NCBI GenBank assembly: GCA_049517415.1
Contig: JBEKSC010000008.1
Coordinates: 22,664 to 86,663, forward strand
DNA length: 64,000 bases
DNA from: Candidatus Bathyarchaeia archaeon
Lineage (GTDB): Archaea; Thermoproteota; Bathyarchaeia; 40CM-2-53-6
Direction of reading: 5' to 3'
Shown: piece by piece, positions 205-64,000 of the stretch
Numbering within the stretch: position 1 is the stretch's first letter
Layout of the letters: each line of letters starts with the position of its first letter
Notes under the pieces: model-generated
The model's database searches: none
Seen by the model: the letters and a program-made list of their open reading frames with translations, nothing else
Told to the model about the DNA's origin: nothing
Made by a program: the position numbers and the translations under genes

Positions 205-233
205 GTGTGTGTGCGCACCATTAGACCCACACC
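205..233 (+). repeat. Dispersed hairpin repeat, copy 1 (GTGTGTGTGCGCACCATTAGACCCACACC)
   Basis: Intergenic. Shares GTGTGTGTG(CG)CACCATTAG with the copy at 63129-63159 on the minus strand. Confidence 0.6.
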
Positions 234-505
234 CTTTCTAACGACGCTGGTCCAAATTACGACTCTCGCAAGCACTAGGTCCACAATGAAGGAAAACGCG
301 ATAGTTGGACAGTTGAAATCACAGATAACGCAAATGGCGACTGCCAACTCTACAGGAGGCTGATTGGAATAATTTGATTGGATTGACGAAGAGTCTTACT
401 TCTTCGCCGATTGCTTAGCGTAGGCCGCCAAACCACCATCCGACACGCCATAATACTTAACCATTTGACTAAGCTTTTGCCATAAAGCTTTGCCAATTCA
501 AAGCG

Positions 506-2721: not shown

Positions 2722-3143
2722 ACAACCCCATTATCGCTAGTTTAACAGGCAATTATTTAGTGCGAGCTTCGCCATTCCGTTACGATACTGTCCGCTCAAT
2801 ATGTTGCATAATGCGCCGCCGACGATGTTGTAGGTTTGTTCAAACAACCTCGCCAGCAGGCTCGACAAGAATACTCGTCCACATTACGGGAAAGTAGAGA
2901 ACAGACACGGTCAGATTCGATAGCGCAAACGGCACTTGGCTCAGAGCTGGTTTTGGTCCGGGACGTGTGTGACGGAAAATCTGATAGAAAATGTAAGAGT
3001 ATATAAAGGGAACGCACTTGCCCAGTTTCGGGACTAGACCCTAGATGTCTTCCTATCTAAAATACGCGTCCAAACCGGGTTTTCTGGTAGATCAACAGCT
3101 CATAACTTCTGATAATGACACTGACGAAACAGAGGTCTAGCCT

Positions 3144-5759: not shown

Positions 5760-6506
5760 TTGATTCAGATAATTGGGCTAAGAAAGATTCCGCTCACCAA
5801 ACGCGGGGACAATATAGCCGATCAGATCGTTAACGCAGCCAGAGAGGAAGGCGCTCAAATCTCAAATAACGACATTTTGGTAATCGCGCAGAAAATCGTG
5901 TCCAAAGCCGAGGGAGGCGTTGTAGATTTGAAAAAGGTCAAGCCTACGGAAAAAGCGGAGGAACTCTCCAAGGCCTGCGGCAAGGATCCTAGACACGTAG
6001 AAACAATTCTGAGAGAAAGCGCGAAAATCGTGCGGCAGAATGGCCCTCATATCATCGTGCAAACTCGCCATGGTTTCGTGTGTGCGAACGCGGGTGTCGA
6101 CAGGTCGAATGTTGAAGATCCTGACTCAGTAGTTGTGCTCCCAGTTGACCCTGACGGATCAGCACGCAAAATAAGGGAACGAATCAGAGAACTCACCGGC
6201 CGAGACGTGGCTGTTATCATCTCCGACACGTTCGGGCGCGCCTGGCGAAATGGGCAAGTAAATGTAGCGATAGGCGTGGATGGATTACGGCCTATAATTG
6301 ATTACCGCGGATCCAAAGACATGTTCGGCTATGTTCTTAATGTAACCCAAATGGCCGTGGCGGATGAACTGGCTTCGGCCGCCGAATTGGTGATGAAGAA
6401 AAGAGATGGCGTTCCGGTTGCAATCATAAAGGGCGTCGATTACGCACACGGCAAGGGCTCAGTTCGTGAGCTCATACGGCCCGAGGAAGAGGACCTGTTT
6501 CGGTAA
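5760..6506 (+). CDS. cofE: Coenzyme F420-0:L-glutamate ligase
   Basis: KIVSKAEG, CANAGVDRSN, DTFGRAWRNG and ADELASAA motifs. Confidence 0.93.
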   Translation: MIQIIGLRKIPLTKRGDNIADQIVNAAREEGAQISNNDILVIAQKIVSKAEGGVVDLKKVKPTEKAEELSKACGKDPRHVETILRESAKIVRQNGPHIIVQTRHGFVCANAGVDRSNVEDPDSVVVLPVDPDGSARKIRERIRELTGRDVAVIISDTFGRAWRNGQVNVAIGVDGLRPIIDYRGSKDMFGYVLNVTQMAVADELASAAELVMKKRDGVPVAIIKGVDYAHGKGSVRELIRPEEEDLFR

Positions 6507-6583
6507 TTCACGGCTATCCAATAGGCTTTGGGAACGACCATTCGCAAGCTTAATTATTCCTAGACCTTTGTGTAGCTGAAACG

Positions 6584-7297
6584 GTGTCCTGCATGGAGTC
6601 ACTAAAACCGCCGGTGCCTGTTCAAGTTGCTGACATGCAGGCTTTCTCGCGGCTCGCACTCGGGTTAACGGAAGGCTCACAAATCCTCTGGTACTTCAAA
6701 CACAAAGGAAAACATGTCTTGGGACTGTTCACAGCCTACATGTACTGGGAAGGCGACCTCCCGATACTGGCCTACGCTTATTCGGATACCCCGCCGAAGG
6801 CCTTCCTCGCCTACAGAAGTGACTCAGTGAAAGGTGAAGAGTGGATGTTCACCGACGATGTAGATGATACTCGTTTCAGGTACGCCGCCTTCGTTGCATT
6901 GAAGACTGTTCCAGAAGCCTTCGCGCAGAGCCTGGACGGCAAATCACCCGAATTGACTCCGCCAATGCTCGCTGAAGTCGACGACCTCAAGTCAATCGCC
7001 AGAATCCTGCTCCCACTATCGCTCCGGGAGGGAACACTATTTCCGCTGTGGCACTTCATGCGGGGAAAGAAGCATATTATCGGTACATGTATTCCCTTCG
7101 AACATTACTACGAAGCAGATGCCCTGCCCGTCTTCTTTTACGTCTCCCAAGATGAAGCACCTGAAAAGAGTTTCATAAAGTACCTCGCGGTCAAACCGAG
7201 CGGCGAGAAAGTTGAATACTCGAACAACACAAGCGACGCCAAATACTTCTACGCAAAACTCATCGACGTGAAGGACCTACCGATTTTTCCCAAGTGA
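6584..7297 (+). CDS. Hypothetical protein made of two tandem ~110-aa homologous domains
   Basis: PP..V.D....R...LW.F...KH..G...LP...Y pattern occurs twice; ORF fits between cofE and pyrF. Confidence 0.75.
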   Translation: MSCMESLKPPVPVQVADMQAFSRLALGLTEGSQILWYFKHKGKHVLGLFTAYMYWEGDLPILAYAYSDTPPKAFLAYRSDSVKGEEWMFTDDVDDTRFRYAAFVALKTVPEAFAQSLDGKSPELTPPMLAEVDDLKSIARILLPLSLREGTLFPLWHFMRGKKHIIGTCIPFEHYYEADALPVFFYVSQDEAPEKSFIKYLAVKPSGEKVEYSNNTSDAKYFYAKLIDVKDLPIFPK

Positions 7298-7354
7298 CTG
7301 CGAGTTTCATGGATTTTATTAGCCCCTCTGCTCTCTTTCCATGGAGGTAGCTGG

Positions 7355-8104
7355 GTGTCTTTTAGCGAGAAGATACGGAAAACTGCAGAAGCGAACAGGA
7401 GCAGAACAGTTCTCGCATTAGATTTGGAAGAACACGACCCAAAACAGCTGGCGATAAAGAGTGAGAAGCTTCTTCAGAAGGTCGGCAAGCGCATCTGCGC
7501 GGTCAAGATTAACCGTCAATTGGTCATGTCATTAGGCATGCGCGGGGGGGTTGACAGGGTCGTCGAATTAGCACACGACCTTGCGCTGCCTGCCATAATG
7601 GATGCGAAGCTAAACGACGTCGGCCACACGAACGAATTCATGGCACGGTCATTCTTCGACATTGGTTTCGACGCCATCATAGCGAGCCCCGTTGTTGGAT
7701 GGGAAAACGGCTTAGACAGAGTGTTCGCCCAAGCTAATTCACGCGGAAGGGCAGTTATACTTCTCGTCTACATGAGTAATCCAGGCGCCGAGGCCTTCTA
7801 CTCATTAGTTGGGGTGCAGGGAGGAGAGCCACCAAAGCCGGTTTTCGAACTTTTGGCGGGGATGGCGGTCCAATGGAAGGCACAGGGAGTTGTAGTCGGC
7901 GCTACCAAGCCTGAGGTAATTTCACGAGTGCGTGAACTGGTTGGCCCAGGAATGGGGATTTACAGCCCGGGCGTCGGTGCCCAGGGAGGCGATCCTAGAC
8001 AGGCATTGGATGCCGGTTCAACTTACATTATAGTAGGACGAACGATTTACGGGTCTGCGGAACCTGAAAAGGCGGCTATGGAGTTCCAAGGCTTAGTCTC
8101 GTGA
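7355..8104 (+). CDS. pyrF: Orotidine-5'-phosphate decarboxylase
   Basis: LALD, DAKLNDVGHT (DxKxxDxxxT), VVGAT, PGVGAQGG and VGR motifs. Confidence 0.93.
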   Translation: MSFSEKIRKTAEANRSRTVLALDLEEHDPKQLAIKSEKLLQKVGKRICAVKINRQLVMSLGMRGGVDRVVELAHDLALPAIMDAKLNDVGHTNEFMARSFFDIGFDAIIASPVVGWENGLDRVFAQANSRGRAVILLVYMSNPGAEAFYSLVGVQGGEPPKPVFELLAGMAVQWKAQGVVVGATKPEVISRVRELVGPGMGIYSPGVGAQGGDPRQALDAGSTYIIVGRTIYGSAEPEKAAMEFQGLVS

Positions 8105-8344
8105 TTCATCATCATCCTACCATGTGACTAGCCGTCCACACCCCTTGTGTGGTGTCCCCAAATGGCCCCCCGCCCTGCCACACCGATCCAAAAGATGTCT
8201 AGCCATTCTATACGCCAAATCTGTGCATGCGGTGGGCATGGCCTGCACGGCCATTCCTTACGCCACGCCTTACTTGGAATATGTCAACTCCAAGACCAAG
8301 ATTTTTATTTACCTACATTTGTAGCCGCTTACTAGTGTTTTCTC

Positions 8345-8677
8345 ATGGGTGGGGCAAAAAAGAAGAGCCTAGCGCAGATGGAGAAGCAGCAGGATCAACA
8401 GGACTCCGACAAGAAACCTGAACCAGCAAAGAAATCGAAAGGAAAGACAGTAGCAGAGAAGAGGACCGCTGGAATAGGTCTTCCAAATTTCGACGACCCT
8501 AAATTCACCGGTGAACTCTCAAAGATGGCAGCCCTCACTCCCTACGCAATTGCCACGCAGTTCAACGTAAGAATCAGCGTTGCAAGGGACATCCTCGAGG
8601 AATTGGAGAGGCGCCGCCTGGTCAAATCGGTTGGCGGGAACGCGAGGATCAAAATCTACAAGCTAGCAGCAGCCTAG
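8345..8677 (+). CDS. rps25e: 30S ribosomal protein S25e
   Basis: MGGAKKKSL N-terminus; basic winged helix TPY.IA....VRISVA..IL. Confidence 0.9.
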   Translation: MGGAKKKSLAQMEKQQDQQDSDKKPEPAKKSKGKTVAEKRTAGIGLPNFDDPKFTGELSKMAALTPYAIATQFNVRISVARDILEELERRRLVKSVGGNARIKIYKLAAA

Positions 8678-9093
8678 ACTTTCTCAACTCGTATTTTTGT
8701 ACCACTCTTCAGCTTCGCAAATAGCTCCAGGTTACTAGTTATCTTTCCAACTAGATTGACGGGGCTGTAAGGCTGTGTTGCGCCGTAGAAGACGCACAAG
8801 GCTGAACCCATAGGCCAATATGCAATAGTCCCAACGTCAACGTTGCTCTTTGCCTTCTCAACACCTAGCCTCACAGGAGTTTCGAAATAGATTTCTTCCT
8901 TCCATCTTGCCGCGCGTCCTTCAAAAGGTAAAGCCTTGGCCAAATTATCAACAGTCATTGGACTCTGAAAACGAATTAATTCACCTTCGGCTTCGCCGAA
9001 ACCTTCTGCAACCAATCTAACCTTGTAACGGCTTACGTCGGTTTCCAGCGGTTTAGCGGTCAGTTCAGTAGGTGGTAACGAATTGGTAGACAT
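8674..9093 (-). CDS. Cyclophilin-like fold protein (TM1367/DUF369-like)
   Basis: LPF...RWKEEIYF; GTIAYWPMGSALCVFYG; SPVNLVG. Confidence 0.8.
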   Translation of the reverse strand: MSTNSLPPTELTAKPLETDVSRYKVRLVAEGFGEAEGELIRFQSPMTVDNLAKALPFEGRAARWKEEIYFETPVRLGVEKAKSNVDVGTIAYWPMGSALCVFYGATQPYSPVNLVGKITSNLELFAKLKSGTKIRVEKV

Positions 9094-9262
9094 GGCTTTT
9101 CCTCTACGAAGTCACTAGTCGTAGGAGAATCACATTTGGGGTTGCCTTCTTAAAAATTGGACATGTCAGAGCCCCGTTATGCCAAATGACCTTGAAATGT
9201 GTAGTTTTCTGACAAAAAGGATAACTACCGCCGTTTTCTAGCCGCCCGAGAGGCATCGTGAC

Positions 9263-10603
9263 TTGAGTGGTCGTGTTCGAACAATAATAATGGGGGCTGC
9301 TGGAAGAGACTTCCACAATTTCAACGTCTATTTCAGGAACAACCCAGACTACGAAGTGGTCGCCTTTACTGCCACACAGATCCCGGGAATCGAGGGACGC
9401 ACATACCCAACCGATCTTTCTGGGAAAATGTATCCGAACGGCATCCCAATTTTCCCTGAGGACGACCTGTCCAAGCTCATTAAAGAGAAGAATATCGACT
9501 TGGTCGTATTGGCTTACAGTGACCTCTCGTACGACGAAGTTATGCACAAAGCCTCTCAAGTCCTTGCGTCCGGTGCAGATTTCAGGTTGATGGGACCCAA
9601 AACGACGATGCTCAAGTCAAGATTGCCAGTGATCTCTGTCTGCGCGGTAAGAACCGGCGCTGGCAAGAGTACGGTCTCGCGCTCCGTTTCCAAGTCCCTA
9701 AAGAAAATTGCAGGCAGAGTTGTCGTCATTCGACATCCCATGCCATACGGAACTCTCTCGAACGAGATTTGCGAACGTTTCGCGACATACGACGACATGA
9801 AACGTCATGAGTGCACTATTGAAGAGCGTGAGGAATACGAACCTCACATCGACATTGGCAACATTGTATACGCAGGCGTTGACTACGAGAAGATCTTGCG
9901 TGAGGCTGAGAAGGAGGCAGATGTGATACTATGGGACGGCGGAAACAACGACCTGCCTTTCTACTATCCGGACCTTCAAATCGTGGTTGTTGACCCGCAA
10001 CGACCCGGGGATGAAGTTCGATATTACCCAGGGGAGGCTAACCTAAGAATGGCTGACGTTGTCCTCATAAACAAAGTCGACTCTTCAACACCCGAAGCCA
10101 TAGAGACTGTTCGGAAGAACGTGAAACGCGTAAGGCCTGAGGCAAAGGTTGTCGAAGCAGCCTCTGAGATTCAAGTTGACGACATCGCGCACATACGCGG
10201 TAAGAGGGTGGTTGCAATTGAGGACGGGCCAACAGTTACCCATGGCGGATTAAAGGAAGGAGTCGGTGCCCTAGCAGCAAGGAAGTACGGTGCAAAGGAA
10301 CTTATCGACCCCAGACCGTTCGCCGTAGGGTCGATCAAGCGAACATACGAGAAGTACCCTCACCTCGGCCAGGTATTGCCAGCCATGGGATATGGTGAGA
10401 AGCAGATCAAAGAACTGGAACAAACAATCGCAGCTATCGATTGCGATTCACTAATCTACGGGACACCGATTGATTTGAAGCGAATTATGAATGTGCCGAA
10501 ACCTGCGGTTAGAGTCCGGTACGAGATTCGCGAAACTACGAGGCCGACACTAGATGAAATCCTCAGTTCAATGCCTATTTTGGTGACGGCAAAGTCACGT
10601 TAG
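9263..10603 (+). CDS. COG2403 P-loop enzyme (often annotated cyclic 2,3-diphosphoglycerate synthetase or GTPase; arginine synthetase ArcE-like)
   Basis: MGAAGRDFHNFN, RTGAGKS P-loop, RHPMPYG, IEEREEYE, WDGGNND and EDGPT motifs. Confidence 0.85.
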   Translation: MSGRVRTIIMGAAGRDFHNFNVYFRNNPDYEVVAFTATQIPGIEGRTYPTDLSGKMYPNGIPIFPEDDLSKLIKEKNIDLVVLAYSDLSYDEVMHKASQVLASGADFRLMGPKTTMLKSRLPVISVCAVRTGAGKSTVSRSVSKSLKKIAGRVVVIRHPMPYGTLSNEICERFATYDDMKRHECTIEEREEYEPHIDIGNIVYAGVDYEKILREAEKEADVILWDGGNNDLPFYYPDLQIVVVDPQRPGDEVRYYPGEANLRMADVVLINKVDSSTPEAIETVRKNVKRVRPEAKVVEAASEIQVDDIAHIRGKRVVAIEDGPTVTHGGLKEGVGALAARKYGAKELIDPRPFAVGSIKRTYEKYPHLGQVLPAMGYGEKQIKELEQTIAAIDCDSLIYGTPIDLKRIMNVPKPAVRVRYEIRETTRPTLDEILSSMPILVTAKSR

Positions 10604-11713
10604 AACTCGCTTCATGGTATCGAAGATATAATTCAACTCGGCTTCAGTGAGCCTCGGGTGGACGGGCACTGAAAAGACCTGCCTACAAGCTTTCTCAGTC
10701 TCAGGAAGAGGTCGGCGTGACGTAGTGCGCTCACGGTATAGCGGGAGCAGGTGCAAAGGAGATTCATAATAGACCGCAGCCTCGATGTTCCTTGACCGAA
10801 GCTTTTCGATGATCTTATTGCGCTTCCCCGCATTCGCTCCATGCAATCTAAGCGTGTAAAGATACCATGCACTCTTCCTGCCCTCCGGCTCCTTAGGAGG
10901 CACTACCTTACCTAGAACTCCAAGCTTCTCTCCTAGAAATTCCGCGTTCTTTCTTCTTTTCTCCAAGAAAGAAGGCAGTTTCTTCAATTGGGCGGTCCCC
11001 ACAGCGGCAAGTAATTCCGTCATCCTGTAATTGTTTCCGACCATCACCGGCCAGTACGGGCGTTGTTCCCCGTGAGATCTAATCATCCGTAATCTCTCAG
11101 AGTAATCATCATCGTTCGTGGTGACCATGCCGCCCTCGCCCGTGGTCATGTTCTTCCCCGCGTACATGCTGAAACAGGTCATGTCACCGATGGATCCAAT
11201 TTTGGACCCCCTGTATTCGGCGCCGTGGGCTTGGGCCGCGTCCTCAATCAATGTCACTCCACGATCTCTGGCCAATTTCTTCAATGGGTCCAAGTCCGCC
11301 GGCAACCCGTATAGATGAACCGGCATGATGACTTTTGTATTCCGCGTCATAACGGCCTCGACTGTTTCGGCAGTTATTGTGTAGGTGTCGGGATCTATGT
11401 CGGCGAATATTGGTTCGCCCCCCGCCATTAGGACAACCTCCGCGGTTGCATGAAACGTAAAGGATGGGATGATCACTTCGTCCCCTGGTTTAACGCCAGC
11501 GATGACGACGGCGGAGTGAAGGGCGGCGGTACCACTGCTCAAAGCCACGGCATGCTTGGCGCCGACATAATGCGCGAATTCTTTCTCGAATTCTAGGACC
11601 CGGGGGCCCATCCCACTCTTCTCAGTCAGAATGCCGCTCTTCAAAACCTCTGTCACCGCATCAATCTCTTCTTTTCCGATAATTGGTTGGTTTATTCGAA
11701 TTAGGTCGCGCAT
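10595..11713 (-). CDS. DegT/DnrJ/EryC1/StrS PLP-dependent aminotransferase
   Basis: SSGTAALH, IEDAAQAHG, FS.YAGKNMTTGEGG. Start set at ATG 11713; the ORF is open to 11758. Confidence 0.9.
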   Translation of the reverse strand: MRDLIRINQPIIGKEEIDAVTEVLKSGILTEKSGMGPRVLEFEKEFAHYVGAKHAVALSSGTAALHSAVVIAGVKPGDEVIIPSFTFHATAEVVLMAGGEPIFADIDPDTYTITAETVEAVMTRNTKVIMPVHLYGLPADLDPLKKLARDRGVTLIEDAAQAHGAEYRGSKIGSIGDMTCFSMYAGKNMTTGEGGMVTTNDDDYSERLRMIRSHGEQRPYWPVMVGNNYRMTELLAAVGTAQLKKLPSFLEKRRKNAEFLGEKLGVLGKVVPPKEPEGRKSAWYLYTLRLHGANAGKRNKIIEKLRSRNIEAAVYYESPLHLLPLYRERTTSRRPLPETEKACRQVFSVPVHPRLTEAELNYIFDTMKRVLT

Positions 11714-12079
11714 AATGATCTTCTCGAGGTCGGGTTCGTTGTCTACTGGAGCGTTCATCTAAAGGTATTGCTGAGTATGGAACGATTTCAGGGGCCGATA
11801 TGGACATGGTTTTGATTTGCGCTGAACGTTAGGGACATGAACCTCCAACTAAGAACTGCTGAGAGGTCAATCCAGAAATAATCCGACAGGCCACCGCTTG
11901 CAAGGCTATTGGATCTTCGGTAACCACGGCTGGATCTGATGCATAAGGAGAGCATCAAGCTTGGGCATCAACGTTCGAGGCTTGCGGCATCGAAATCAAA
12001 GGCCGAAATAAGTGGCTAACAATCATCCAAAACGCAAGTCAAAAGTAGCTCACGCAACCGACTATACATCTGACTCAAC

Positions 12080-12322
12080 ATGCCGATAGATGTGAATGAG
12101 GCAGACCGCTCGCGTGTCGAAGGAATGATTCGGGCGTATCTACATTCCAAAGTCTCAATCGCACAAGTTAGAGGGGCAGTCAGTTCCTCATCCTTTAGAC
12201 GAGGGGGACTTAGAGCTATCCTTGACGAAGTCGAGGTAAGTACCTCAGCGCTATCTGAGGATGAAAGAGGTAAGCTTATGGCCGTTTTGAAGGCCGAGCT
12301 TCAAAAGTCGGGTTTTCTCTAG
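12080..12322 (+). CDS. Hypothetical 80-aa helical protein
   Basis: ATG-started ORF in an otherwise empty gap; protein-like composition. Confidence 0.55.
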   Translation: MPIDVNEADRSRVEGMIRAYLHSKVSIAQVRGAVSSSSFRRGGLRAILDEVEVSTSALSEDERGKLMAVLKAELQKSGFL

Positions 12323-12457
12323 AGCTATCAAACGAACGGTAACAGCCCCAAAGAGCGGCTCTTACCAAACGCAGAGGTACCAGAACCAGACAACAATAAC
12401 CTTATATGAAATTGCTTTTTGTTGGAGAGCCGTTCACGTTAGCGGAGGCTTTCAGGT

Positions 12458-14101
12458 TTGTCGGCGATTATCGGTGGGCAGCGGGCCCAAATACTCAAAG
12501 AAGGAACTTCTAGCACCCAGGGGCGCGAAGCCCTACACGCCGATATTATGGCTGCCATGGTTATCGCAGAGGCGGTCCGGTCTTCTCTTGGACCTAAAGG
12601 CATGGATAAAATGCTCGTCGATGGTTTCGGTGACGTCACCATCACCAATGACGGCGCAACGATTCTCGACGAGATGGATGTACAACACCCGACAGCAAAA
12701 ATGATGGTGGAAGTCGCCAAAACACAAGATGACGAAGTAGGAGACGGAACCACCACTGCGGTCGTCTTAGCTGCCGAACTACTTTCGAAGGCACAGGTCT
12801 TAATGGACAAGGATGTCCATCCAACGGTAATTATTGACGGCTACCAGATAGCGAGCGAGAAGGCGCTCGAGTTTATGCGCAAAATCGCAACCAAAGTCAA
12901 TCCGACCGACAAGGTAATGCTAAAGAAAATCGCCAAAGTCGCCCTCGCCTCAAAGTTAGTGGCAGAGCACAAGGACTTTGTTGCGGACCTTGCCGTTAAG
13001 GCCGTTCTTCATGTAGCTGAGAAGACGGGAACTAATTACAAGGCTGATCTTGACGACATCAAGGTGGAAAAGAAACCAGGGGGATCCTTGACCGATACGG
13101 CGCTCATTCAAGGTGTAGTGCTCGACAAAGAGGTCGTTCACCCTGGAATGCCACGCCGAGTTGAGAATGCGAGAATTGCACTCTTGAATTGTCCGTTCGA
13201 AGTAGAGAAAACTGAGTTCGACGCCAAACTAAACGTCAAGACTCCAGACCAAATGAAAGGTTTCCTTAACGAGGAAGAGAAGATTCTGCGGGAGATGGTG
13301 GACCGTGTCGTGTCCAGCGGGGCGAACGTGGTCATTTGCGAGAAGGGGATCGATGATATGGCGCAGCACTTCATGGCTAAGAAGAATGTGTTGGCCGTTA
13401 GGCGTGTGAAAGAATCTGACATGGAGAAGCTTGCTAAGGCCACAGGTGCGACTACCCTCACGCAACTCGAAGACTTGAAGGCCTCCGACTTAGGGCGGGC
13501 AAACCTAGTAGAAGAACGTAAGGTTTCAGACGATAAGATGACGTTTGTCGAAGGATGCAAGAACCCGAAGGCTGTCAGTATTCTCGTTCGAGGGGGGACC
13601 GAGAGGGTTGTCGATGAAGCGGAGCGCGCGATTCACGATGCGTTGTCCGTGGTTCGTGATGTTGTGCTGGAACCCCAGGTTGTCGCAGGTGGCGGATCTC
13701 CCGAAGCCGAGGTAGCACGAATGCTTAGGAGCTATGCTCAGAGATTGTCGGGGAAGGAGCAGCTAGCGATTCAGGCCTACGCTGATGGATTGGAGATTAT
13801 TCCACTGACCCTAGCTGAAAACGCTGGAATGGACCCGATAAATTCCCTAATGGAAATTAGGTCGAAACATCAATCCAAACAAAAATCGGTAGGGATCGAC
13901 CCCTACAAGGGGGAAGTCTCAGACCTTGCAAAACTCGAAGTTTATGAGCCCCTTTCCGTTAAGGTGCAAGCTCTGAAATCCGCTGGCGAAGCCGCCGCCA
14001 TGATTCTGAGGATTGACGACATCATAGCGGCCTCAAAGTCGAAGGAAGCGCCCAAGGGGCCAGAAAAAAGTGCCAAAGAAGAAGGAGACGGCGAGTCCTA
14101 G
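12458..14101 (+). CDS. ths: Thermosome (group II chaperonin) subunit
   Basis: [24 protein letters not shown] and ILRIDD motifs; TATA-like CTTATAT about 50 bp upstream. Confidence 0.97.
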
Positions 14102-14369
14102 GAAAACGATCCAGCTCATCGGTCCGAAGAAACTAACGCGTTTTGAACGCGCTCGGATCGTGGGTGCGAGAGCTCTACAAATATCCATGGGTGCGCCTGT
14201 ACTCTTGGACGTGCCCGAATCGATTAAGTCGCCGATAGAACTTGCTGAACTTGAACTTCAGGAAGGAGCACTTCCTATTAGCATTCGACGAGCCCTACCA
14301 GATGGAACCAGTATGAATATTCCACTCAAGACACTTCTTGAAGGCGAGCGGGAAGAAGCGGAACTATAG
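14070..14369 (+). CDS. rpoK: RNA polymerase subunit Rpo6/K
   Basis: LTRFERARIVGARALQISMGAP and IRRALPDG motifs; overlaps the thermosome stop codon. Confidence 0.95.
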   Translation: MPKKKETASPRKTIQLIGPKKLTRFERARIVGARALQISMGAPVLLDVPESIKSPIELAELELQEGALPISIRRALPDGTSMNIPLKTLLEGEREEAEL

Positions 14370-14583
14370 TTTGGCAGACTCGCCAAGCTCAACAGACGAA
14401 AGAAGACTTTGGCTCTTTGCCTTCCTAATCCTTTTGCTCGTCTCCATATGGATGCTAACAATGCACCTCTTGAACAGTGCATTCTTGGCTTTGGATTTCG
14501 AGGTTTCACTCATCTATCTCCCCACGTTACTTGCAGGATTGATTGCTCTCTACCTTTCCCTAAAAACGAAAGCTAGTCAGTAG
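14338..14583 (+). CDS. Small two-TM membrane protein
   Basis: Two hydrophobic helices; the start position is uncertain. Confidence 0.5.
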   Translation: MKASGKKRNYSLADSPSSTDERRLWLFAFLILLLVSIWMLTMHLLNSAFLALDFEVSLIYLPTLLAGLIALYLSLKTKASQ

Positions 14584-14865
14584 ATATGGGAATGATATTC
14601 ATGTTGACAGTTAGTTTTCATAAATGCGCCCAAAGAATCTCCACGACAATGCGGCTTCAGATAATGTGCTTGCAATCCGCGGCTTTACAGTAGAATTGGA
14701 GGGAACTACATTCGAAACCTTCTAAGGAACTTTGTAAGTCGCTTGCGATGCACCCGCCCCGTCTAGGTTGAAATGTAGCCTATTGGCCGGCGAGATGATG
14801 CCGTTTCGGGGCATAATGGTTCCATTCGACTCCTGCCTGAGTCCTTGCTTCCTCCCTGATTGGGC

Positions 14866-15234
14866 CTATGGTCCACGGCCATACCCATATCTTGCGTAGG
14901 GCAGTATTGGGCCTGAGTAGAATGGCAAAGTAAATCGTGGCGGGGAGTGGCGGGTAGAACACATCGGGCAGTAGGCGTTTCCAAAAATGTACTGTTTGCA
15001 GCTCATGCAGATCGGTACTCCACACATGGCACAATTGGTCTGGCTCGGAAGCCAAGGATGGTAAACGCAACCCCCAGCCCGTCCAATGGGCTGGAATAAA
15101 TTCGTCGCTGTTTCAGTGCGTTCAGGGCTCTCATAGGCGGGGGGAACTACGACCGATTGGCCGCATTTCAAACAGTAGTTGGCTATGTCTCTGTTTTCAG
15201 CTCCGCACGTTGCGCACTTGATCAATCCGACCAC
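14866..15234 (-). CDS. Zinc-ribbon plus B-box-like zinc-finger protein
   Basis: CxxCG..CxxCG, then CxxH...CxxCG.PICxxC...CxxC. Confidence 0.75.
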   Translation of the reverse strand: MVGLIKCATCGAENRDIANYCLKCGQSVVVPPAYESPERTETATNLFQPIGRAGGCVYHPWLPSQTNCAMCGVPICMSCKQYIFGNAYCPMCSTRHSPPRFTLPFYSGPILPYARYGYGRGP

Positions 15235-15442
15235 ACAGAATAAAACGTGTACGAGGGTGTTAATATTATCTCAGTTTCTCTGCAACTTGAAAATCTTATG
15301 AGCACCGAGGTCTCAACTTGCAGCCGGAATCGCCATGTCGCTGACCAGCTGTCCGAGATTCGGTGGCCCACTTGAGTTTATCTCGGGCAACAGGACAAGG
15401 TCGAAGTGCGCGAATTGCGGTTTCTACGACGATTGTAGTTAG

Positions 15443-16087
15443 GTGAATGTGATGCGGTACGAGGATGTTCTCGATTATGTCCAACGGCTGGTCGGGGAAG
15501 GAGACAGGCTGCAAGAATGGGTCTATGCAAAGTCGCAGGAACTAAGAGATTTGGGAGTTTTTCCTATCGACCCCACAAGGGGGCGCTTCTTGGAATTGCT
15601 GGCTCGGATGACAAGCCCTAGTCGAGTCCTCGAGATTGGCTCGGGGGCCGGCTACAGTGCGCTCTGGTTCATGAAAGGCATGGGTGGGAAGGGGAAGTTG
15701 GACGCAATCGAAGTCAACCCAGAAGTTGTAGAAGTTCTGAGAAACGTCACGAAAAAAGCAGGTTTGCAAAGGCGGATCCGGATTCATCATGGACCAGCCT
15801 TAGCGATGCTTCGCAAAATGAATGGGCCTTACGACATAGTCTTCATAGACGCCGACAAGGACGAATACCCTGCCTACTTGGACCACGCTCTCAGACTAAC
15901 CAAGGCGAGAAGCGCTATCTTGGCGGATAATATGTTGTGGAGTGGCGCCACTGTCCTAGGTGATACGCGAAGGGAAGGCGTGCATGGAATAATGGATTAC
16001 ACAAAGCGCATCTTCGCTGACAAGAGATTGTTCAGCATAATCATCCCACTAGGAGACGGACTGGCGGTAAGCTATCGAATCAAATAG
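15443..16087 (+). CDS. Class I O-methyltransferase (YrrM/COMT-like)
   Basis: LEIGSGAGYS, FIDADK..Y, ADN.LW.G and GDGL motifs. Confidence 0.9.
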   Translation: MNVMRYEDVLDYVQRLVGEGDRLQEWVYAKSQELRDLGVFPIDPTRGRFLELLARMTSPSRVLEIGSGAGYSALWFMKGMGGKGKLDAIEVNPEVVEVLRNVTKKAGLQRRIRIHHGPALAMLRKMNGPYDIVFIDADKDEYPAYLDHALRLTKARSAILADNMLWSGATVLGDTRREGVHGIMDYTKRIFADKRLFSIIIPLGDGLAVSYRIK

Positions 16088-16148
16088 TCCGAAGTTCTCC
16101 GATAAACCCATAAAGCCGCCAGCGTTCGAAGCAGACGCGTTCACGTCG

Positions 16149-17507
16149 ATGCTAAGGATTACGAAGACGGGGGCACTGAAGGTGTCCCTGTTCGGAATCG
16201 TCACTGTAATCATAGTAGAAAGCTTAGCGGCAATGGCGACGGGAAGCCTAGCTCTTCTAAGCGATTCCGCCCATGCCTCCTTCGATGCAATATCCACTTT
16301 GATCTTGCTGGTTGCAACGAGGCTCTCATTGAAACCCGCGGATGAAGATCACACTTATGGCCACGGAAAAATTGAATCACTAGGCGCCCTCATTGGTGGT
16401 TTTGTCCTCTTAATCCTAGCAATAGGAATCGTCGCTGCAGCAGTATTTCGTTTGAGCGTTGGGGGTGCGATCCACCCCACTCTATTCGGGTATGCTGCTG
16501 CGGCATACACGATCGGCATAGACATCTTGAGGCTAGCAGTATTGACCTCGGCATTGAAGACGGGGAGCCTATCGGTCCGAGCCGATCTTTACCATGCGGT
16601 GGCGGACCTCTTTTACACTTCGCTCGTCTTTGTTGCATTAGGATTAGTGTCCTTAGGTTACGCTGTAGGCGATACAGCAATATCACTCGTGCTCGCAATG
16701 TTGCTCGGGTATCTGAGCATTCGGCTGATTCATGCATCAATGCTCGACCTCAGTGACGCCGTATCCGGCAAACTCGTTCAATCAATTCTTCGCGAAATTC
16801 GGAAGACCGAAGAGGTGCTCAAAATAAAGGAACTTCGCGCGCGCCGAGTTGGGCAGATAACCTATGTCGACGCTGTAGTAGCTGTTTCACCCTTTGCAGG
16901 AATTGCAGATGCCGACACGATCGCTTCAAAGATTGAAGACAATCTCACGAAACTTCTAGGTAAATCCTCAATACTGATTCACTTAGAGCCCCTAGAATGG
17001 GACATACCACTTGAGTTGAAGATTCGGCACGCGACAAGCCGGGTTGAAGGCGCCCGAGGGCTCCATAACTTAACGGTAACGAAGATAGGCAGCGGGTTGT
17101 ACGTGACACTTCACGTTCAGGTCGATCCTTCATTGCCACTTGAGAAAGCGCATGAAATAGCAAAGTCCATAGAAGATGGGATAGAGAAATCTGTGCCGGA
17201 AGTGCGACAGGTTACGGTTCACTTGGAACCATCGATGCCTGAGAGCGGCAAGGGAACTTTCGTCGACGACAGATATATATCGGAAACGATCAGGTCAGTG
17301 GTTCAAGCGTACACGGATGTAATTGAAATCAACGGAATCACGACCTATGAAACTGAAGGGAAATTGCACATCAACGTTCACTGTCTGTTCGCAAGGGAAG
17401 CTCTTATTTCAGAAATACATGAGATGATATCACAAATCGAAGAGAGCGTGAGGCAAGAAATCAACAATGCAATTGTAACAATACATCCCGAGCCTACCCC
17501 ACGGTAG
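16149..17507 (+). CDS. Cation diffusion facilitator with three tandem cytoplasmic domains
   Basis: GSLALLSDSAH, HTYGHGKIE and HAVAD motifs; three C-terminal units ending IHLEP, VHLEP and IHPEP. Confidence 0.9.
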   Translation: MLRITKTGALKVSLFGIVTVIIVESLAAMATGSLALLSDSAHASFDAISTLILLVATRLSLKPADEDHTYGHGKIESLGALIGGFVLLILAIGIVAAAVFRLSVGGAIHPTLFGYAAAAYTIGIDILRLAVLTSALKTGSLSVRADLYHAVADLFYTSLVFVALGLVSLGYAVGDTAISLVLAMLLGYLSIRLIHASMLDLSDAVSGKLVQSILREIRKTEEVLKIKELRARRVGQITYVDAVVAVSPFAGIADADTIASKIEDNLTKLLGKSSILIHLEPLEWDIPLELKIRHATSRVEGARGLHNLTVTKIGSGLYVTLHVQVDPSLPLEKAHEIAKSIEDGIEKSVPEVRQVTVHLEPSMPESGKGTFVDDRYISETIRSVVQAYTDVIEINGITTYETEGKLHINVHCLFAREALISEIHEMISQIEESVRQEINNAIVTIHPEPTPR

Positions 17508-60971: not shown

Positions 60972-61386
60972 ACATCAAGTCCCCCGAAAGATGCCTCATA
61001 ATCTTAAGCCGAAGTCATGATCTAAGGGTAGCCGGGTTGGTAACGAGTATCCACATGGCCTCCCCCCGCTTTCCTCGAAAAGCAACGCCATCCAACAATA
61101 ATCCGTGAGCATTTCGCAGTGGACGCATTTACTTTCTTTGTAACAACAATGCCTAATGTAATTACTAGCAGCGCGAACATGACAGGAGCGCTAAACATGC
61201 GTCGTTAGAAACACCCGACCCCCGATAGGGTATTCCGTGGCAGAGAGATATCTACACTAATCTTTCCACTAAACTACAGAAACAAAACGCGCACTCCAAA
61301 GATTTTCAACCTACTGCAACACAGAACAACGAATCCCAGTCCAACTGATACCAATCTGAAAAAAGTGTCCGCGAGCACGTTCCATT

Positions 61387-61465
61387 TGTGTTTGTGCGAC
61401 CAGCATACGCACCAAAAAAAGGGTGGTTCGAATCTGGTTGGCCGCACCAGTGGCATCACATACAA
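61387..61465 (+). repeat. Hairpin copy 4 plus tRNA 3'-end mimic plus right arm
   Basis: TGTGTTTGTGCGACCAGCATACGCACC; GGTTCGAATCTGGTTGGCCGCACCA (61425-61449, 25 nt); GTGGCATCACATACAA. Confidence 0.6.
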
Positions 61466-61515
61466 CATTGTTCCTCTAGCGCTAAGTACACATCAAGTTG
61501 GGAGAGACCACAGTA

Positions 61516-62592
61516 TCAGTCTGCGTAGTCCAAAATGAACCTTAGGATAGGATTCGGTATCTTGAAGCAATTAGTCAAGAAGTTCCGCACTGAGTAGAAC
61601 ATCGAAGTCTCGACGTTCACCGAGTTGGAACAGCTACTGCAGTGATCTGTCGATCTTGCATACTTCGCATAGGAGTCTGAGCAAAGCACGTCGCCCAGAC
61701 TCTGTTTACGCAGGTCTCCCAGAACTTCACCGTTCCTCGTGCACCAGAAAGGAGTAATCTCACCGGTCTCGGAAACCGTGATGAAAATTTTAGGTTGTGC
61801 ACACGAGTATTTCTTCTGCTTAGTAAGATGCCGCAGGTAATCATACGAATTGAGGATCGGATAACCGGCTTTCTTGTATCTCAATATCTCTGTGGCCAGG
61901 TTTCTGACTTCCTCATCTGATAAGGCGTATCTATCATTTATCCCTGGAAAAACATGCATGGGATCAAATGCCAATTTCGTATCCAACTCTTCTGCCAACG
62001 CGGCCATCTTGGGAACGGCATCTCTGTTGAGTTTGCTCAGAACACAATTGATGACAACCCTTCCACCCATTCGTCTCAATGCAACTATGCCAGTACTCGC
62101 TCTTTCAAACGCGCCGGGAAAGGCGCGCATTCGATCATGGTACTCAGAATTGTAGTCCAAAGAAACCCAGGTAAGGTCGACACAATTTGCCATTTCCCTG
62201 GCCCTTTGAGATAGGTAAATTCCGTTTGTGATTAGGCTAGTATACAAACCGACGCTATGTGCACATTGCATTATCTCCATGATATCCCGCCTCAAGAGCG
62301 GTTCCCCGCCCCAAACGAGATACGCGGCGAATTTCAGATTTCTCGCCTCGACGAGTGTTCTGAGAATGTCGCGAGTTGCCATCTCACCTTCGTTCCTCGG
62401 CTTTCTCCACACATCGCACATCAGACACTTGCAGTTGCATTTCGATGTTACCGAATGTGTTAGGATTATTGGTTTTCCTGTCCAGAATCGAGAATAGTTG
62501 TAGCGATGTGCGTATCTCAGGGCGCTGAGCATTTGATCCCATCTTTGTTTGGCTGTTACAGGCACACGCTGTAATGACCTAATATATAGCAT
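61516..62592 (-). CDS. Radical SAM protein with a SPASM/Twitch-like C-terminus
   Basis: CNCKCLMC, GGEPLLR, ITNG and VSLD motifs; C-terminal C...C...CSSC. Confidence 0.88.
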   Translation of the reverse strand: MLYIRSLQRVPVTAKQRWDQMLSALRYAHRYNYSRFWTGKPIILTHSVTSKCNCKCLMCDVWRKPRNEGEMATRDILRTLVEARNLKFAAYLVWGGEPLLRRDIMEIMQCAHSVGLYTSLITNGIYLSQRAREMANCVDLTWVSLDYNSEYHDRMRAFPGAFERASTGIVALRRMGGRVVINCVLSKLNRDAVPKMAALAEELDTKLAFDPMHVFPGINDRYALSDEEVRNLATEILRYKKAGYPILNSYDYLRHLTKQKKYSCAQPKIFITVSETGEITPFWCTRNGEVLGDLRKQSLGDVLCSDSYAKYARSTDHCSSCSNSVNVETSMFYSVRNFLTNCFKIPNPILRFILDYAD

Positions 62593-62619
62593 CGAATTCT
62601 TGATTTGTCCCTCTAAGGG

Positions 62620-63100
62620 CGGGCATTAAACGCAGGTCCAGAACATGAACATCGAAATCGCCAAACTCGCCTGCAACCGGGAAGACGTGAAACTCATTTC
62701 TGAGAAGCTTGCAAGCTGGGCTGGACTGGCTCCAAGCATCCGACAATCAGGCAGCCAAACCAAACGTGGACACATCACAAAACAAGGCTCCAGAATGCTC
62801 CGCTGGATTCTCATCCAATCAGCTCAGATTTCCCATCGATCCGACCCAAGATTCCAATCCCTCCACAATCGAATCGCAGCCAGACGAGGCAACAACAAAG
62901 CCATAGTCGCCGTTGCACGTGAAATGCTGACCATCGCATACTACATGCTCACCAGACGAGAGGAATATCGGGGCATGGATATGGAACGTTACAAGGAAAA
63001 ACTCAAGAGGCTAGAACGAATAGCAAACAGAGGCTTGCAATAATCCGCAGGAAACCAGTCAAACAGCCTTCCGCAGAAACAGATTGCGTTTTCATGGATG
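62620..63100 (+). mobile_element. IS110-family remnant (5'-truncated, internally deleted transposase at 62645-63043)
   Basis: SWAGLAPS..QSG, GHITKQGS..LRW.L and KAIVAVAR motifs; the DEDD domain and the IPG.G...EIGD segment are missing. Ends are approximate. Confidence 0.85.
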
Positions 63101-63159
63101 GTGCGAGCACCTAAATTTGAACCGTCATTGTGTGTGTAGTACTAATGGTGCACACACAC
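63099..63159 (-). repeat. Hairpin copy 5 plus tRNA 3'-end mimic
   Basis: Minus strand GTGTGTGTGCACCATTAGTACTACACACACA-ATGAC-GGTTCAAATTTAGGTGCTCGCACCA; the 25-nt mimic is 63099-63123. Confidence 0.65.
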
Positions 63160-63204
63160 CACCGGACTATGTGACTGAGAGGAACACAGATTGAATGCGA
63201 TGCT

Positions 63205-63630
63205 TCACTGTTTTTTCAATCTGTATAGTGCATAAACAGCTGCAGTCATCCCTAAGAAAAAGTATAACACTGCTATTTCTATTGGCAAAGTTCCACCTAT
63301 CATGTAAAACGGCGAATGATAATAACTCCACAATCGATTTCCAGTTCCATAAAGCTCCCACACTATATCTGCCACAAAACCAATAGCACCAAGCTCTAAG
63401 ATTACAGGATTTCTAAGTTTAACAAGTCCAGCTATTCCGATGACACCAAACAGAACCATTAGAAGTGTACTCGTCCAGACATTTCTGCCTAATTGACTTG
63501 CTAGAAAAGTGGAAAAGATAATGGCCAAGATCATAATTGAAACTATTGTGACACTATTTTTGAAGGCATCGGCTTTTCCGGCAGAGATAATCCACTCAAT
63601 AACATGCTGAACTTGATTTCGTTTTCCCAT
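63205..63630 (-). CDS. Hypothetical four-TM membrane protein
   Basis: GGAGA RBS; hydrophobic helices; E..G....LW.Y...P.E motif; visibly AT-richer than neighbouring genes. Confidence 0.7.
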   Translation of the reverse strand: MGKRNQVQHVIEWIISAGKADAFKNSVTIVSIMILAIIFSTFLASQLGRNVWTSTLLMVLFGVIGIAGLVKLRNPVILELGAIGFVADIVWELYGTGNRLWSYYHSPFYMIGGTLPIEIAVLYFFLGMTAAVYALYRLKKQ

Positions 63631-63750
63631 TATTCATTTCTCCTCAGCTGGTGGCATAGTAATTTCCTGCACCACATTCATGTCATATAAGAATTCCATC
63701 AATCACTATTGGGAACTAATGGCGTCTTATCGTCGTTTGAGCGGGACTTA

Positions 63751-63857
63751 TTCTTGTGTGTGGATATGCTGGTGCGCGCACACACACACTTTCTGTCGAC
63801 GAACGACGACGGTTCAAATTATGATGCCCGCACCAATGATATATACACACACAAGAA
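63751..63857 (+). repeat. Hairpin copy 6 plus tRNA 3'-end mimic plus right arm
   Basis: TTCTTGTGTGTGGATATGCTGGTGCGCGCACACACACAC; GGTTCAAATTATGATGCCCGCACCA (63811-63835); ATGATATATACACACACAAGAA. Confidence 0.65.
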
Positions 63858-64000
63858 AATACGGTGGATGACGCGTGAAGGATTAGGGTAAGGTTCTGGC
63901 CGATAACATATGTTATCACAAAATCTAATGCATACCCTGCTGCAATACACATGATAAGTGTTGACTTCTCGCGATAGGCATGTTGCGATCCTGATTCTAC

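Follow-up and report, generated by a model that had tools for sequence, protein, structure and literature searches.

The question raised by this locus is why strings resembling the 3' end of a tRNA lie between its genes, next to GT/CA palindromes, and which enzyme could have brought them there. Judged from sequence, the strings are probably copies of the integration target of a casposon-type family of Bathyarchaeia that is moved by a stand-alone Cas1. In the window, meaning the whole stretch of 64,000 nucleotides that was analysed, the motif GGTTCRAAT-N9-CGCACCA is found exactly three times, at 61425-61449 (+), 63099-63123 (-) and 63811-63835 (+), and the 25-mers at these positions (T1, T2 and T3) are letter for letter those claimed by the earlier note. 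Chance predicts no match and none was found in 100 dinucleotide-preserving shuffles of the window, so the motif is more frequent there than in shuffled DNA. A scan of the whole genome (2.65 Mb) rendered 21 exact matches. Seven of these have, by eye, the T-stem of a tRNA (ATCCC...), and four of the seven end ARAGORN -i tRNA calls. The remaining 14 are members of the repeat family, which is spread across one genus of soil and peat Bathyarchaeia.

Strings of this kind might be real pieces of tRNA, either 3' halves of split or intron-cut tRNAs or decaying pseudogenes. Interruptions are a pronounced feature of the tRNA genes of the genome, of which ARAGORN detects 28 when introns are allowed and 8 when they are not; CCA is encoded, and CGCACCA is the end of at least four of the tRNA genes called by ARAGORN. 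However, the strings occur in dozens of copies with a freely varying middle, transposon tips follow them, and the bases at their T-stem positions cannot pair with upstream bases, which takes the split or intron-cut tRNA out of consideration. ARAGORN found no tRNA gene in the window or on its contig, and RF00005, with 18 matches genome-wide, has none on that contig, in agreement with the earlier observation that no tRNA 5' half lies near the strings. An origin as genuine tRNA pieces is highly improbable. A separate RNA element was rejected as well: the Rfam scan of the window gave no family at gathering score, and the variable N5 and N9 have, by eye, no consistent pairing to nearby bases.

T1 shares 20 of its 25 positions with a real tRNA 3' end, and in 4 of 22 relatives this tRNA end, GGTTCAAATCCCGGCGGCCGCACCA, is directly followed by N6 and CCACAC (7 sites, all with the same 25-mer). 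The tRNA end itself is thus occupied, which supports the proposal that the strings copy a real tRNA 3' end and are attB-like. Integration at a tRNA 3' end with a duplication starting with CGCA characterises family 2 casposons, and both are found here. Passages of PMC4779613 describe, for Methanosarcina mazei, duplications of 14 bp that begin at CGCA and overlap with the tRNA-Leu end, together with look-alike intergenic sites and solo TIRs beside CGCA. Integration in M. mazei requires about 30 bp of upstream tRNA sequence and is abolished when bases 12-17 are mutated, according to parts of PMC6977970. At the present locus T1 continues after its CCA into GTGGCATCACATACAAC and T3 into ATGATATATACACACACAAGAA, the right arm reported earlier, and the "tRNA end plus right arm" hybrid is real as a junction between target and element; T2 has no such arm after its CCA.

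The genome contains 324 CGCACCA sites. A tip follows in 55, of which 24 have the T-loop at -18 and 21 a preceding tip, and the T-loop is found in only 16 of the 269 tip-less sites. Sixteen of 53 CA-tip junctions have a T-loop in the same orientation 21-43 nt inside the tip (about 0.55 expected), and none has one in the opposite orientation. About 30% of the CA-type ends bear their own copy of this recognition pad, so that new elements can land inside old ones.

A GT/CA inverted repeat is located just 5' of each string, at 61387-61412 (degenerate), 63130-63159 and 63755-63789. DNA folding gives -5.1, -6.9 and -8.3 kcal/mol, respectively, and z-scores against shuffles of -1.7, -0.4 and -2.3. These scores are modest and therefore the hairpin claimed beside each string stands as a genuine inverted repeat in all three cases, the first one degenerate, but not as an unusually stable structure. 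The "hairpin" is composed of two terminal-inverted-repeat tips (GTGTGTG and CACACAC) that flank a target duplication of 13-14 bp with CGCACCA at its start. What had been taken for an attP-like site is instead made up of the right tip of one element, the left tip of the following one and, between them, the target duplication. The region 61387-63857 is a stack of elements Y, M, Z and W (Table 1), and the stacking of gene cassettes proposed by the earlier note is upheld; Cas1 is encoded by none of the four. A loop inversion that would explain inverted 13-mers is superfluous in the window, where both 13-mers are forward on the minus strand. IS110 was rejected as the cause because its sole match in the genome is a 132-aa fragment in element Y (cargo or debris), and a lone fragment cannot account for dozens of sites.

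Table 1. Features of the locus; positions are counted from the first base of the window unless a contig is named.
Feature	Position	Strand	Description
Nearest cas1 ORF	C8:20750-21964		404-aa Cas1, about 0.7 kb left of the window
Far-left junction	205..236	+	GT tip, 13-mer CGCACCATTAGAC, CA tip (CCACACCC); closes a cas1-bearing stretch left of the window
Hairpin 1, decayed junction	61387..61408	+	Right tip GTGTTTGTG of the left-hand element, then duplication-like 13-mer CGACCAGCATACG
Pad T1	61425..61442	+	Recognition part of the target mimic, GGTTCGAAT + N9
13-mer CGCACCAGTGGCA	61443..61455	+	Putative target-site-duplication position at T1, by analogy with the three intact elements
Element Y	61456..63138	.	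Decayed, without cas1; left tip TCACATACAAC to right tip TGTGTGTGTA
Radical SAM/SPASM gene	61516-62592	-	Cargo of element Y
IS110-family transposase fragment	62645-63043	+	Cargo of element Y, C-terminal fragment
Pad T2 with its CGCACCATCCATG	63093..63123	-	Inside the end of element Y; unoccupied in the window's genome
Hairpin 2 loop	63139..63152	-	14-mer TGCACCATTAGTAC between the element Y tip and the cassette M tip
Cassette M	63151..63762	-	About 612 bp, CA tip to GT tip; boundaries within 2 bases
Cassette M ORF	63205-63630		Single ORF, 141-aa membrane protein, no Pfam match
Hairpin 3 loop	63763..63776	-	14-mer CGCACCAGCATATC (minus-strand reading) between the element Z tip and the cassette M tip
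Element Z left end	63777..63828	+	CA tip (CGCACACACACAC), T-run, ACGACG-repeat spacer 63790-63810, built-in pad T3 63811-63828
T3 13-mer and element W tip	63829..63857	+	CGCACCAATGATA, then CA tip of element W (TATACACACACAAGAA); W extends to the contig end

Perfect 13-bp repeats, CGCACCACTATAC, CGCACCAGCATAC and CGCACCAGCTGAC, stand on both sides of three elements that bear cas1 (8,629, 10,979 and 7,158 bp), which is to say all three of the cas1-bearing elements for which both junctions were located. In every case the repeats adjoin the inverted tips on their outer side and a T-loop pad lies to the left; the tips are CCACACACAC / GTGTGTGTG on contig C3 of genome G000 and of the 17-bp CCGCCCCCGCCGCCGCC type in G014 and G004. 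Every one of these duplications begins with CGCACCA, and the six bases that follow (N6) are the same on both sides of an intact element but different between insertions. Because CGCACCA and N6 are duplicated as a whole and N6 is specific to the insertion, the pattern fits a target duplication made by a staggered cut and not the conservative exchange inside a fixed CGCACCA core that the earlier note proposed. Contig C3 has a further, third copy of its 13-mer behind a second element whose cas1 is broken, and this tandem layout is the shared-duplication arrangement described for Methanosarcina in passages of PMC4779613.

Perfect direct repeats alone are equally compatible with the shared core of an attL and an attR. 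A conservative site-specific system, where a tyrosine or integron-type recombinase would cross a tRNA-like attB with a hairpin attP in the CGCACCA core and thereby build cassette arrays, would account for several properties of the locus: the arrays are integron-like with single accessory genes separated by a conserved site, breakpoints are found exactly at the 5' edge of CGCACCA, and most cas1-less cassettes are without matching duplications (GCATAT and TTAGTA flank cassette M, CTGAGA and TCCATG a cassette in G002), which a crossover in the core allows. It does not predict, however, that N6 is identical within intact elements and differs between elements with the same tips. Against it also speak the inverted repeats at the element ends and the N6 in front of cassette M, which varies from genome to genome. 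When neighbouring junctions were paired naively, 4 of 27 pairs had identical N6 compared with 4.9% per random pair, a weak excess from a pairing that is unreliable because elements are nested or recombined. The casposase loci L133-L136 and L138 gave no clean junction pair with a simple finder, and L140 and L141 have few or no sites.

A tyrosine recombinase was sought without success in the 35 ORFs that make up the three complete elements and in the 66 ORFs of five repeat-rich stretches, and no IntI-type recombinase was found among 66 + 26 + 25 scanned ORFs. Those integrases that are clear in this genome are at other places, namely C2, next to a different tRNA, and C16, and all PF00589 matches are outside the arrays except one sub-threshold ORF; this weak tyrosine-recombinase-like ORF, beside a cas1 fragment on C9 (24.3 bits, cut-off 27.1), speaks for a conservative system. 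Such a system, and with it the tyrosine integrase of the earlier note, is very improbable. As a separate observation, an integrase-type element is apparently located at a different tRNA in the genome (C2:121864-122861). A TnpB-type transposase was also rejected, with a single match in the genome on C17, far from any repeat.

The genome has four cas1 genes or fragments and every one of them is inside a repeat cluster; an intact casposase is encoded at C3:145169-146395 (G000). The Cas1 encoded on C8 has its best PDB match in the M. mazei casposase 6OPM (E 4.3e-69, residues 36-403), against E 4.5e-21 for the best CRISPR Cas1, and no Cas2 was found in the genome. A stand-alone Cas1 outside a CRISPR-cas locus is consequently present in the genome, with no cas1 inside 61387-63857, which agrees with the expectation that the enzyme is encoded outside these coordinates. 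A Cas1 casposase is the most likely enzyme to act at the strings, rather than a tyrosine integrase.

The three elements have 11 + 14 + 10 ORFs, most of them without any Pfam match, and the matches obtained include no polymerase family (PolB), so a very divergent polymerase is possible. The elements therefore fail the "self-synthesizing" part of the casposon definition, and on sequence grounds the family is a polymerase-less variant of the family 2 casposons. The conserved accessory genes of family 2 are two HTH proteins and an HNH endonuclease (passages of PMC4779613); HNH_3 was found in one of the three intact elements (G014), and HTH family matches in none. Casposase loci compared within and between two genomes share at most 80% DNA identity and hence do not point to a very recent burst.

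Cassette M is found in five other genomes with 88-94% identity from tip to tip, at different loci and in two copies each in G011 and G013, and the homology stops at the tips. The chromosomal flank is just 73% identical to that of G011, and homology to this relative ends about 10 bases before the first junction (61387..61408). The distal 13-mer is inverted in three of the five foreign copies whose junctions were read, and the copy at G013:C14 has near-identical flanks. Pad T2, empty in the window, is filled in the relative G002, where the GT tip of a 1.9-kb cassette precedes the shared downstream DNA with a breakpoint exactly 5' of CGCACCA. Synteny breakpoints between genomes are accordingly located exactly at strings and tips (T2 in G002, the copies of M, and G011), as the earlier note anticipated. 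A fresh insertion in T2 is expected to leave a second copy of CGCACCATCCATG; G002 has a single copy, and the other flank of its cassette is a different pad. In four metagenomes from peat or wetland, cassette M has a summed contig depth about 3 to 30 times as high as the unique flank, and the contigs that exit its tips lead into a wide variety of flanking sequences. Among the contigs of the four runs there was none with a joint from which a cassette had been precisely removed, but since contigs drop rare variants this says nothing about excision.

These data also bear on whether the repeats could be free-standing REP- or MITE-like palindromes, for example terminators or protein-binding sites, which spread alone and lie near casposons by chance. 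The repeats are intergenic, often just 3' of ORFs and with a T-run after the hairpin, and C39 has two identical copies of a 96-bp module whose flanks are unrelated. Furthermore, 9 of 20 motif-bearing genomes of the same genus have no casposase match at E <= 1e-20, and these nine motif-rich relatives include well-assembled ones with 15-33 motif hits. On the other hand, homology starts and stops at the tips, which means that the DNA between the repeats moves and not the repeat; the 13-mer acts as a duplication around the cas1 elements, all four cas1 genes or fragments are within clusters, and the genome (estimated 100% complete) has no match to the Y1 (HUH)/RAYT transposase PF01797. Independent palindromes are a very improbable explanation.

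For a casposon-type family, the natural target would be the 3' end of one tRNA gene. By comparison with the M. mazei enzyme, the casposase would recognise both the CGCA where it cuts and, 10-18 bases upstream of it, the T-loop segment GGTTCAAAT. As the three intact elements show, the two strands are cut 13-14 bases apart, and CGCACCA with the next 6-7 bases is thereby duplicated on both sides of the insert. The elements end in short inverted repeats of the CCACACACAC or the GC-rich type, and a string with its right arm would represent pad, duplication and left tip. The middle of the strings has probably drifted because there is no need for them to fold as tRNA. Elements Y, M, Z and W are without Cas1 and any movement of them would presumably need an enzyme in trans. 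It is a more tentative suggestion that the cas1-less cassettes, many of which bring along a fresh pad at their own termini, together act as a platform for gene capture that renews itself and is driven by the casposase, an archaeal and Cas1-based counterpart of the integron.

The closest known systems are the family 2 casposons (M. mazei MetMaz-C1 and relatives, and Aciduliprofundum boonei), given that the stand-alone Cas1 is closest to 6OPM. They too have a tRNA 3' end and intergenic look-alikes as target with a 13-14 bp duplication from CGCA (passages of PMC4779613 and PMC6977970), tandem elements that share one duplication and solo ends beside CGCA (PMC4779613, in part), and a requirement for upstream tRNA sequence in targeting, which the present family would share if it behaves as in M. 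mazei (PMC6977970, in part). An HNH endonuclease is also common to both, although here in one of three elements examined. The present family differs in that no PolB was found in the three intact elements, its tips consist of CA repeats or of a GC-rich 17-mer, small cassettes that lack cas1 make up most of the units, target copies are built into about 30% of the CA-type ends, CCA is encoded and hence inside the duplication, and the host belongs to Bathyarchaeia. Casposons are presumed ancestors of the CRISPR adaptation machinery and are known mainly as a few large elements that carry a polymerase. A limited search of the literature, with sources available in part, found nothing that connects casposons with Bathyarchaeota or Bathyarchaeia. 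A widespread soil and peat archaeal group appears to hold a polymerase-less casposon branch, which is notable for a target that mimics a tRNA end, for the multiplication of this target in element ends and for single-gene, non-autonomous derivatives that pile into islands. For annotation, it accounts for many "tRNA fragments" and GT/CA palindromes in Bathyarchaeia genomes and for assembly breaks there.

Integrons (IntI, attI/attC) are similar in their rows of single, mostly promoter-less accessory genes between recurring structured sites. The integron attC core pattern is GTTRRRY, which the present sites lack, as GGTTCAAAT has C at the fourth base of GTTC; nor is there an IntI-like gene in the elements and stretches examined, and the cassettes have inverted-repeat tips and target duplications. 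If the casposase moves cassettes in trans, this would be a second, independent route to gene-cassette arrays. The elements that target tRNA genes with a tyrosine integrase, such as archaeal proviruses and plasmids and also the tycheposons of Prochlorococcus, likewise land at tRNA 3' ends and leave partial tRNA copies along islands. They have an exact copy of the att core and an integrase gene at the element end, in contrast to the inverted tips, the Cas1 and the variable six-base repeat tail found here.

Acquisition of CRISPR spacers by Cas1-Cas2 at the leader-proximal repeat differs from the present system in its repeat of 25-50 bp compared with 13-14 bp, in that whole elements with their own ends are inserted here, and in that no Cas2 was found in this genome. 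The principle is nevertheless alike, with a Cas1 that is guided by upstream sequence and duplicates the segment it cuts across, so that repetition gives a repeat array. Movement of cassettes by the casposase in trans would provide a natural setting for repeated Cas1 insertion beside a recognition sequence, and if the capture-platform reading is true, the arrays of 13-14 bp repeats would be a living example of the proposed intermediate between casposons and CRISPR arrays.

The three 25-nt mimics of a tRNA 3' end described in the earlier note (T1, T2 and T3) are all present as matches to GGTTCRAAT-N9-CGCACCA, at 61425-61449 (+), 63099-63123 (-) and 63811-63835 (+), and the pattern has no match in 100 shuffles of the window. 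Neither ARAGORN nor a search for Rfam families gave a hit in the window. A GT/CA inverted repeat precedes each mimic, and a CA-rich arm follows the CCA at T1 and T3 but not at T2. Folded as single strands the inverted repeats give -5.1 to -8.3 kcal/mol (z-scores -0.4 to -2.3). The proposed inverted repeats and right arms are thus real, yet as hairpins they are thermodynamically ordinary.

The host genome (2.65 Mb in 59 contigs, the window being C8:22664-86663) has 21 exact matches to the pattern, a large family, seven of them with tRNA-type T-stems and 14 sharing a modular repeat (Table). A looser pattern, GCACCA-N4-8-CACACA, gives 45 sites, concentrated at contig ends, on small contigs and in a few islands. 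The genes between repeats are single, unrelated and accessory, including helicase, CBS, GNAT, TBP, AsnC-type, nitrilase, luciferase-like oxidoreductase and transporter genes; no recombinase was found among 66 ORFs located there. On C39 (locus L001), two junction modules of about 95 bp (263-356 and 4430-4523) lie 4,167 bp apart, each consisting of tip (a short terminal inverted repeat), 13-mer (CGCACCA-N6), tip, spacer, pad (the T-loop part of a mimic), 13-mer and tip; they are identical over the printed parts and have unrelated outer flanks. Within the genus 20 of 22 genomes carry the core motif, as do 2 of 18 from other genera, and the reversed pattern gave zero matches across all 41 genomes. 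When one genome per prokaryote species was scanned, at least 116 stretches carried the motif, and 78 of the 80 listed come from records with Bathyarchaeia or Bathyarchaeota in the title, for the most part of peat and soil origin.

Features of the repeat system (window positions unless a contig or locus is named; G000 is the host genome, other G numbers are relatives)
Feature	Location	Details
Right tip of element further left	61387-61395	
Decayed 13-mer	61396-61408	
Pad T1	61425-61442	+ strand
13-mer	61443-61455	CGCACCAGTGGCA
Element Y	61456-63138	decayed tip TCACATACAAC, radical SAM/SPASM gene, IS110 fragment, inward-facing pad T2, tip
14-mer between Y and M	63139-63152	
Cassette M	about 63151-63762	
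14-mer between M and Z	63763-63776	
End of element Z	63777-63828	tip, spacer, pad T3
13-mer	63829-63841	CGCACCAATGATA
Element W	63842 to contig end	
cas1 gene	C8:20750-21964	404-aa product; ~0.7 kb left of window
cas1-bearing element	G000:C3	8,629 bp; 13-bp repeat CGCACCACTATAC; tips CCACACACAC / GTGTGTGTG
cas1-bearing element	G014:C3	10,979 bp; 13-bp repeat CGCACCAGCATAC; 17-bp GC-rich TIR
cas1-bearing element	G004:C45	7,158 bp; 13-bp repeat CGCACCAGCTGAC; GC-rich TIR
Modular repeat, T-form		GGTTCAAAT-N9-CGCACCA-N6-CCACACACAC
Modular repeat, hairpin form		GTGTGTGTG-CGCACCA-N6-CCACACACAC
Modular repeat, spacer		ACTTTT...ACGACGAACGACGAC, leads to next T-form
Second end type	L137 (G014:C3:221800-241799) 6280-17245; L139; L014 (G000 C9) about 3000-3050	
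GGTCAGAATCCCCTCCCCCGCACCA mimic	L011 (G000 C4:125000-143000); L008 8533-8620; L015, L038, L046, L048, L049, L057, L083, L121	

The recombinase postulated outside the window has a likely counterpart in the neighbouring Cas1, which is not of the tyrosine type; the clear tyrosine recombinases of the genome are on C2 (beside a different tRNA) and C16. All four Cas1 matches of the genome (C3:145490-146242, C8:21065-21814 and fragments at C3:142652-143035 and C9:17654-17893) are within repeat clusters. The C8 protein aligns almost end to end, C-terminal part included, with the Methanosarcina mazei casposase 6OPM (E 4.3e-69); its best CRISPR Cas1 match has only E 4.5e-21. Neither Cas2 nor a Y1 transposase was found in the genome. 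On C9 (18000-26000, locus L014) a 351-aa ORF at 589-1641 scores 24.3 bits as a tyrosine recombinase, below the cut-off of 27.1, and adjoins the cas1 fragment and a GC-tip junction. Six relatives have full-length casposase genes; among the 20 genomes of the genus that carry the motif, nine gave no casposase match at E <= 1e-20. The casposase loci compared at the DNA level are at most 80% identical, so recent bursts are not evident.

Pairing each opening site (CGCACCA-N6 then tip) with the next closing site (tip then CGCACCA-N6) gives three elements that carry cas1 and are flanked by perfect direct repeats of 13 bp. In all three, a T-loop pad precedes the left repeat and the CA tip of an older element follows the right one. 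The C3 13-mer has a third copy 8 kb further, after a second element with a stop-broken cas1, and its N6, CTATAC, is absent from all other listed sites in the genome. No polymerase or tyrosine integrase is among the Pfam matches of the three elements; the one in G014 encodes an HNH endonuclease, a TIR-domain protein and a TPR protein. Element ends also come in a second form, in which CCGCCCCCGCCGCCGCC precedes ACGACG-rich repeats; the pads and the CGCACCA-N6 duplication are unchanged.

The target itself is recognizable in 34 tip-followed sites without an upstream tip, where positions -18 to -10 (GGTTCAAAT) are 59-94% conserved, position -3 is 94% G and positions -8 to -5 are almost free. This casposon-target profile accounts for the conserved T-loop and CGCACCA and the drifted middle noticed earlier. 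The 25-mer GGTTCAAATCCCGGCGGCCGCACCA forms the 3' end of a genuine tRNA gene with an intron (C1:120540-120671, called Arg-TCT by ARAGORN), and T1 matches it at 20 of 25 positions. The C1 gene has no clear tip downstream; in 4 of 22 relatives (seven sites) the 25-mer is followed directly by N6 and CCACAC. At such an occupied end ARAGORN calls a tRNA that stops at the junction with a different anticodon in one relative, and makes no tRNA call in another. ARAGORN finds 8 tRNA genes in the host without the intron option and 28 with it; the set is heavily interrupted, and CCA is encoded in the genes inspected.

At 16 of 53 CA-tip junctions of the host genome a T-loop in the same orientation is present 21-43 nt inward of the tip, against about 0.55 expected from the genome-wide frequency; none of the 53 has one in the opposite orientation. 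Such pads inside element ends account for the nesting and for short tandem series of pad, duplication, tip, spacer and again pad. Read on the minus strand, both 14-mers flanking M, a cas1-less cassette of about 612 bp, are forward and the order is Z end, duplication, M, duplication, Y end. Hairpins 2 and 3, taken for attP-like sites in the note, are therefore just pairs of opposed tips with a duplication between them. Element Y includes 132 aa from the C-terminal end of an IS110-family transposase (PF02371; 62645-63043, +). This fragment is the only IS110-family match in the genome, and with the DNA downstream it is 90-93% identical in G002. Two junction sites enclose the cargo gene for the radical SAM protein (61516-62592, -), whose C-terminal end has DUF3463/SPASM-like matches; a search of 22 genomes of the genus gave no homolog of the gene at the DNA level. 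Many pads have beside them, in reverse orientation, another mimic of a tRNA end, GGTCAGAATCCCCTCCCCCGCACCA, with a pairable GGGG/CCCC T-stem; six of its copies lie inside 13 kb of C4. Because a nearly identical sequence, GGTTCGAATCCCCTCCCCCGCACCA, ends a real tRNA beside a tyrosine integrase (C2:121864-122861), this mimic may be an att remnant of a separate integrase-type element.

Breakpoint mapping, which the note had proposed, places the ends of homology at these sites. Cassette M recurs at 88-94% identity in G013 and G011 (two loci each), G021, G014 and G004, and in the five copies with junctions read the homology is bounded by the tips and the flanks differ; copies are 97.6% identical within G011 and 96.2% within G013. 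In the chromosomal flank 61178-61376, identity to G011 is only 73%, and homology ends about 10 bases before 61387, beyond which G011 has other junction units. Pad T2 is followed by CGCACCATCCATGAAAACGCA... without a tip, and in G002 the matching downstream DNA, 90-93% identical, has the GT tip of a 1.9-kb cassette before it in place of the pad, the breakpoint being exactly 5' of CGCACCA. The stretch was found in 20 metagenome runs (peat, wetland, soil) from 19 studies, nine of which may be sources of the assembly. In four metagenomes M and the junction modules have a summed contig depth about 3 to 30 times as high as the unique flank, a depth that pools all organisms and so reflects community multiplicity, not copy number; contigs in four runs lead from tips into many alternative flanks. 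Contigs of 3.6-4.3 kb covering 63665-64000 extend beyond the right end, where the genome contig stops, and one metagenome joint hints that the pad T3 region is repeated in inverted form just past 64000.

Matching duplications are rare around cas1-less cassettes. The N6 flanks are GCATAT and TTAGTA for M in the window and CTGAGA and TCCATG for the G002 cassette; among foreign M copies one has near-identical flanks and three have an inverted distal 13-mer. Neighbouring junction pairs share N6 in 4 of 27 cases compared with 4.9% of random pairs, and three of those four enclose cas1. We infer that the mismatched flanks result from age and from recombination or deletion between many similar ends.

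Outside subscription journals, the partly available literature gave no paper linking casposons with Bathyarchaeota or Bathyarchaeia, and for non-autonomous or miniature casposon derivatives only the solo TIRs of PMC4779613 were among the matches listed. The available part of that paper describes M. mazei casposons with 14-bp duplications that always begin with CGCA, inserted at the tRNA-Leu end and at look-alike intergenic sites, with tandem elements sharing one duplication between them and having one copy inactivated, and with solo TIRs adjoining CGCA. According to the accessible text of PMC6977970, the final 4 bp of tRNA-Leu fall within the duplication, and targeted integration depends on the duplication together with 30 bp of the tRNA sequence upstream and is lost when upstream bases 12-17 are mutated. 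As far as these sources go, the layout of the Bathyarchaeia sites is alike, and by enzyme, target, duplication and tandem habit the elements appear to work like family-2 casposons. They differ in that the three intact ones show no match to the polymerase that defines "self-synthesizing" casposons, their tips are different, small cas1-less cassettes predominate and the elements hold copies of the target in their own ends.
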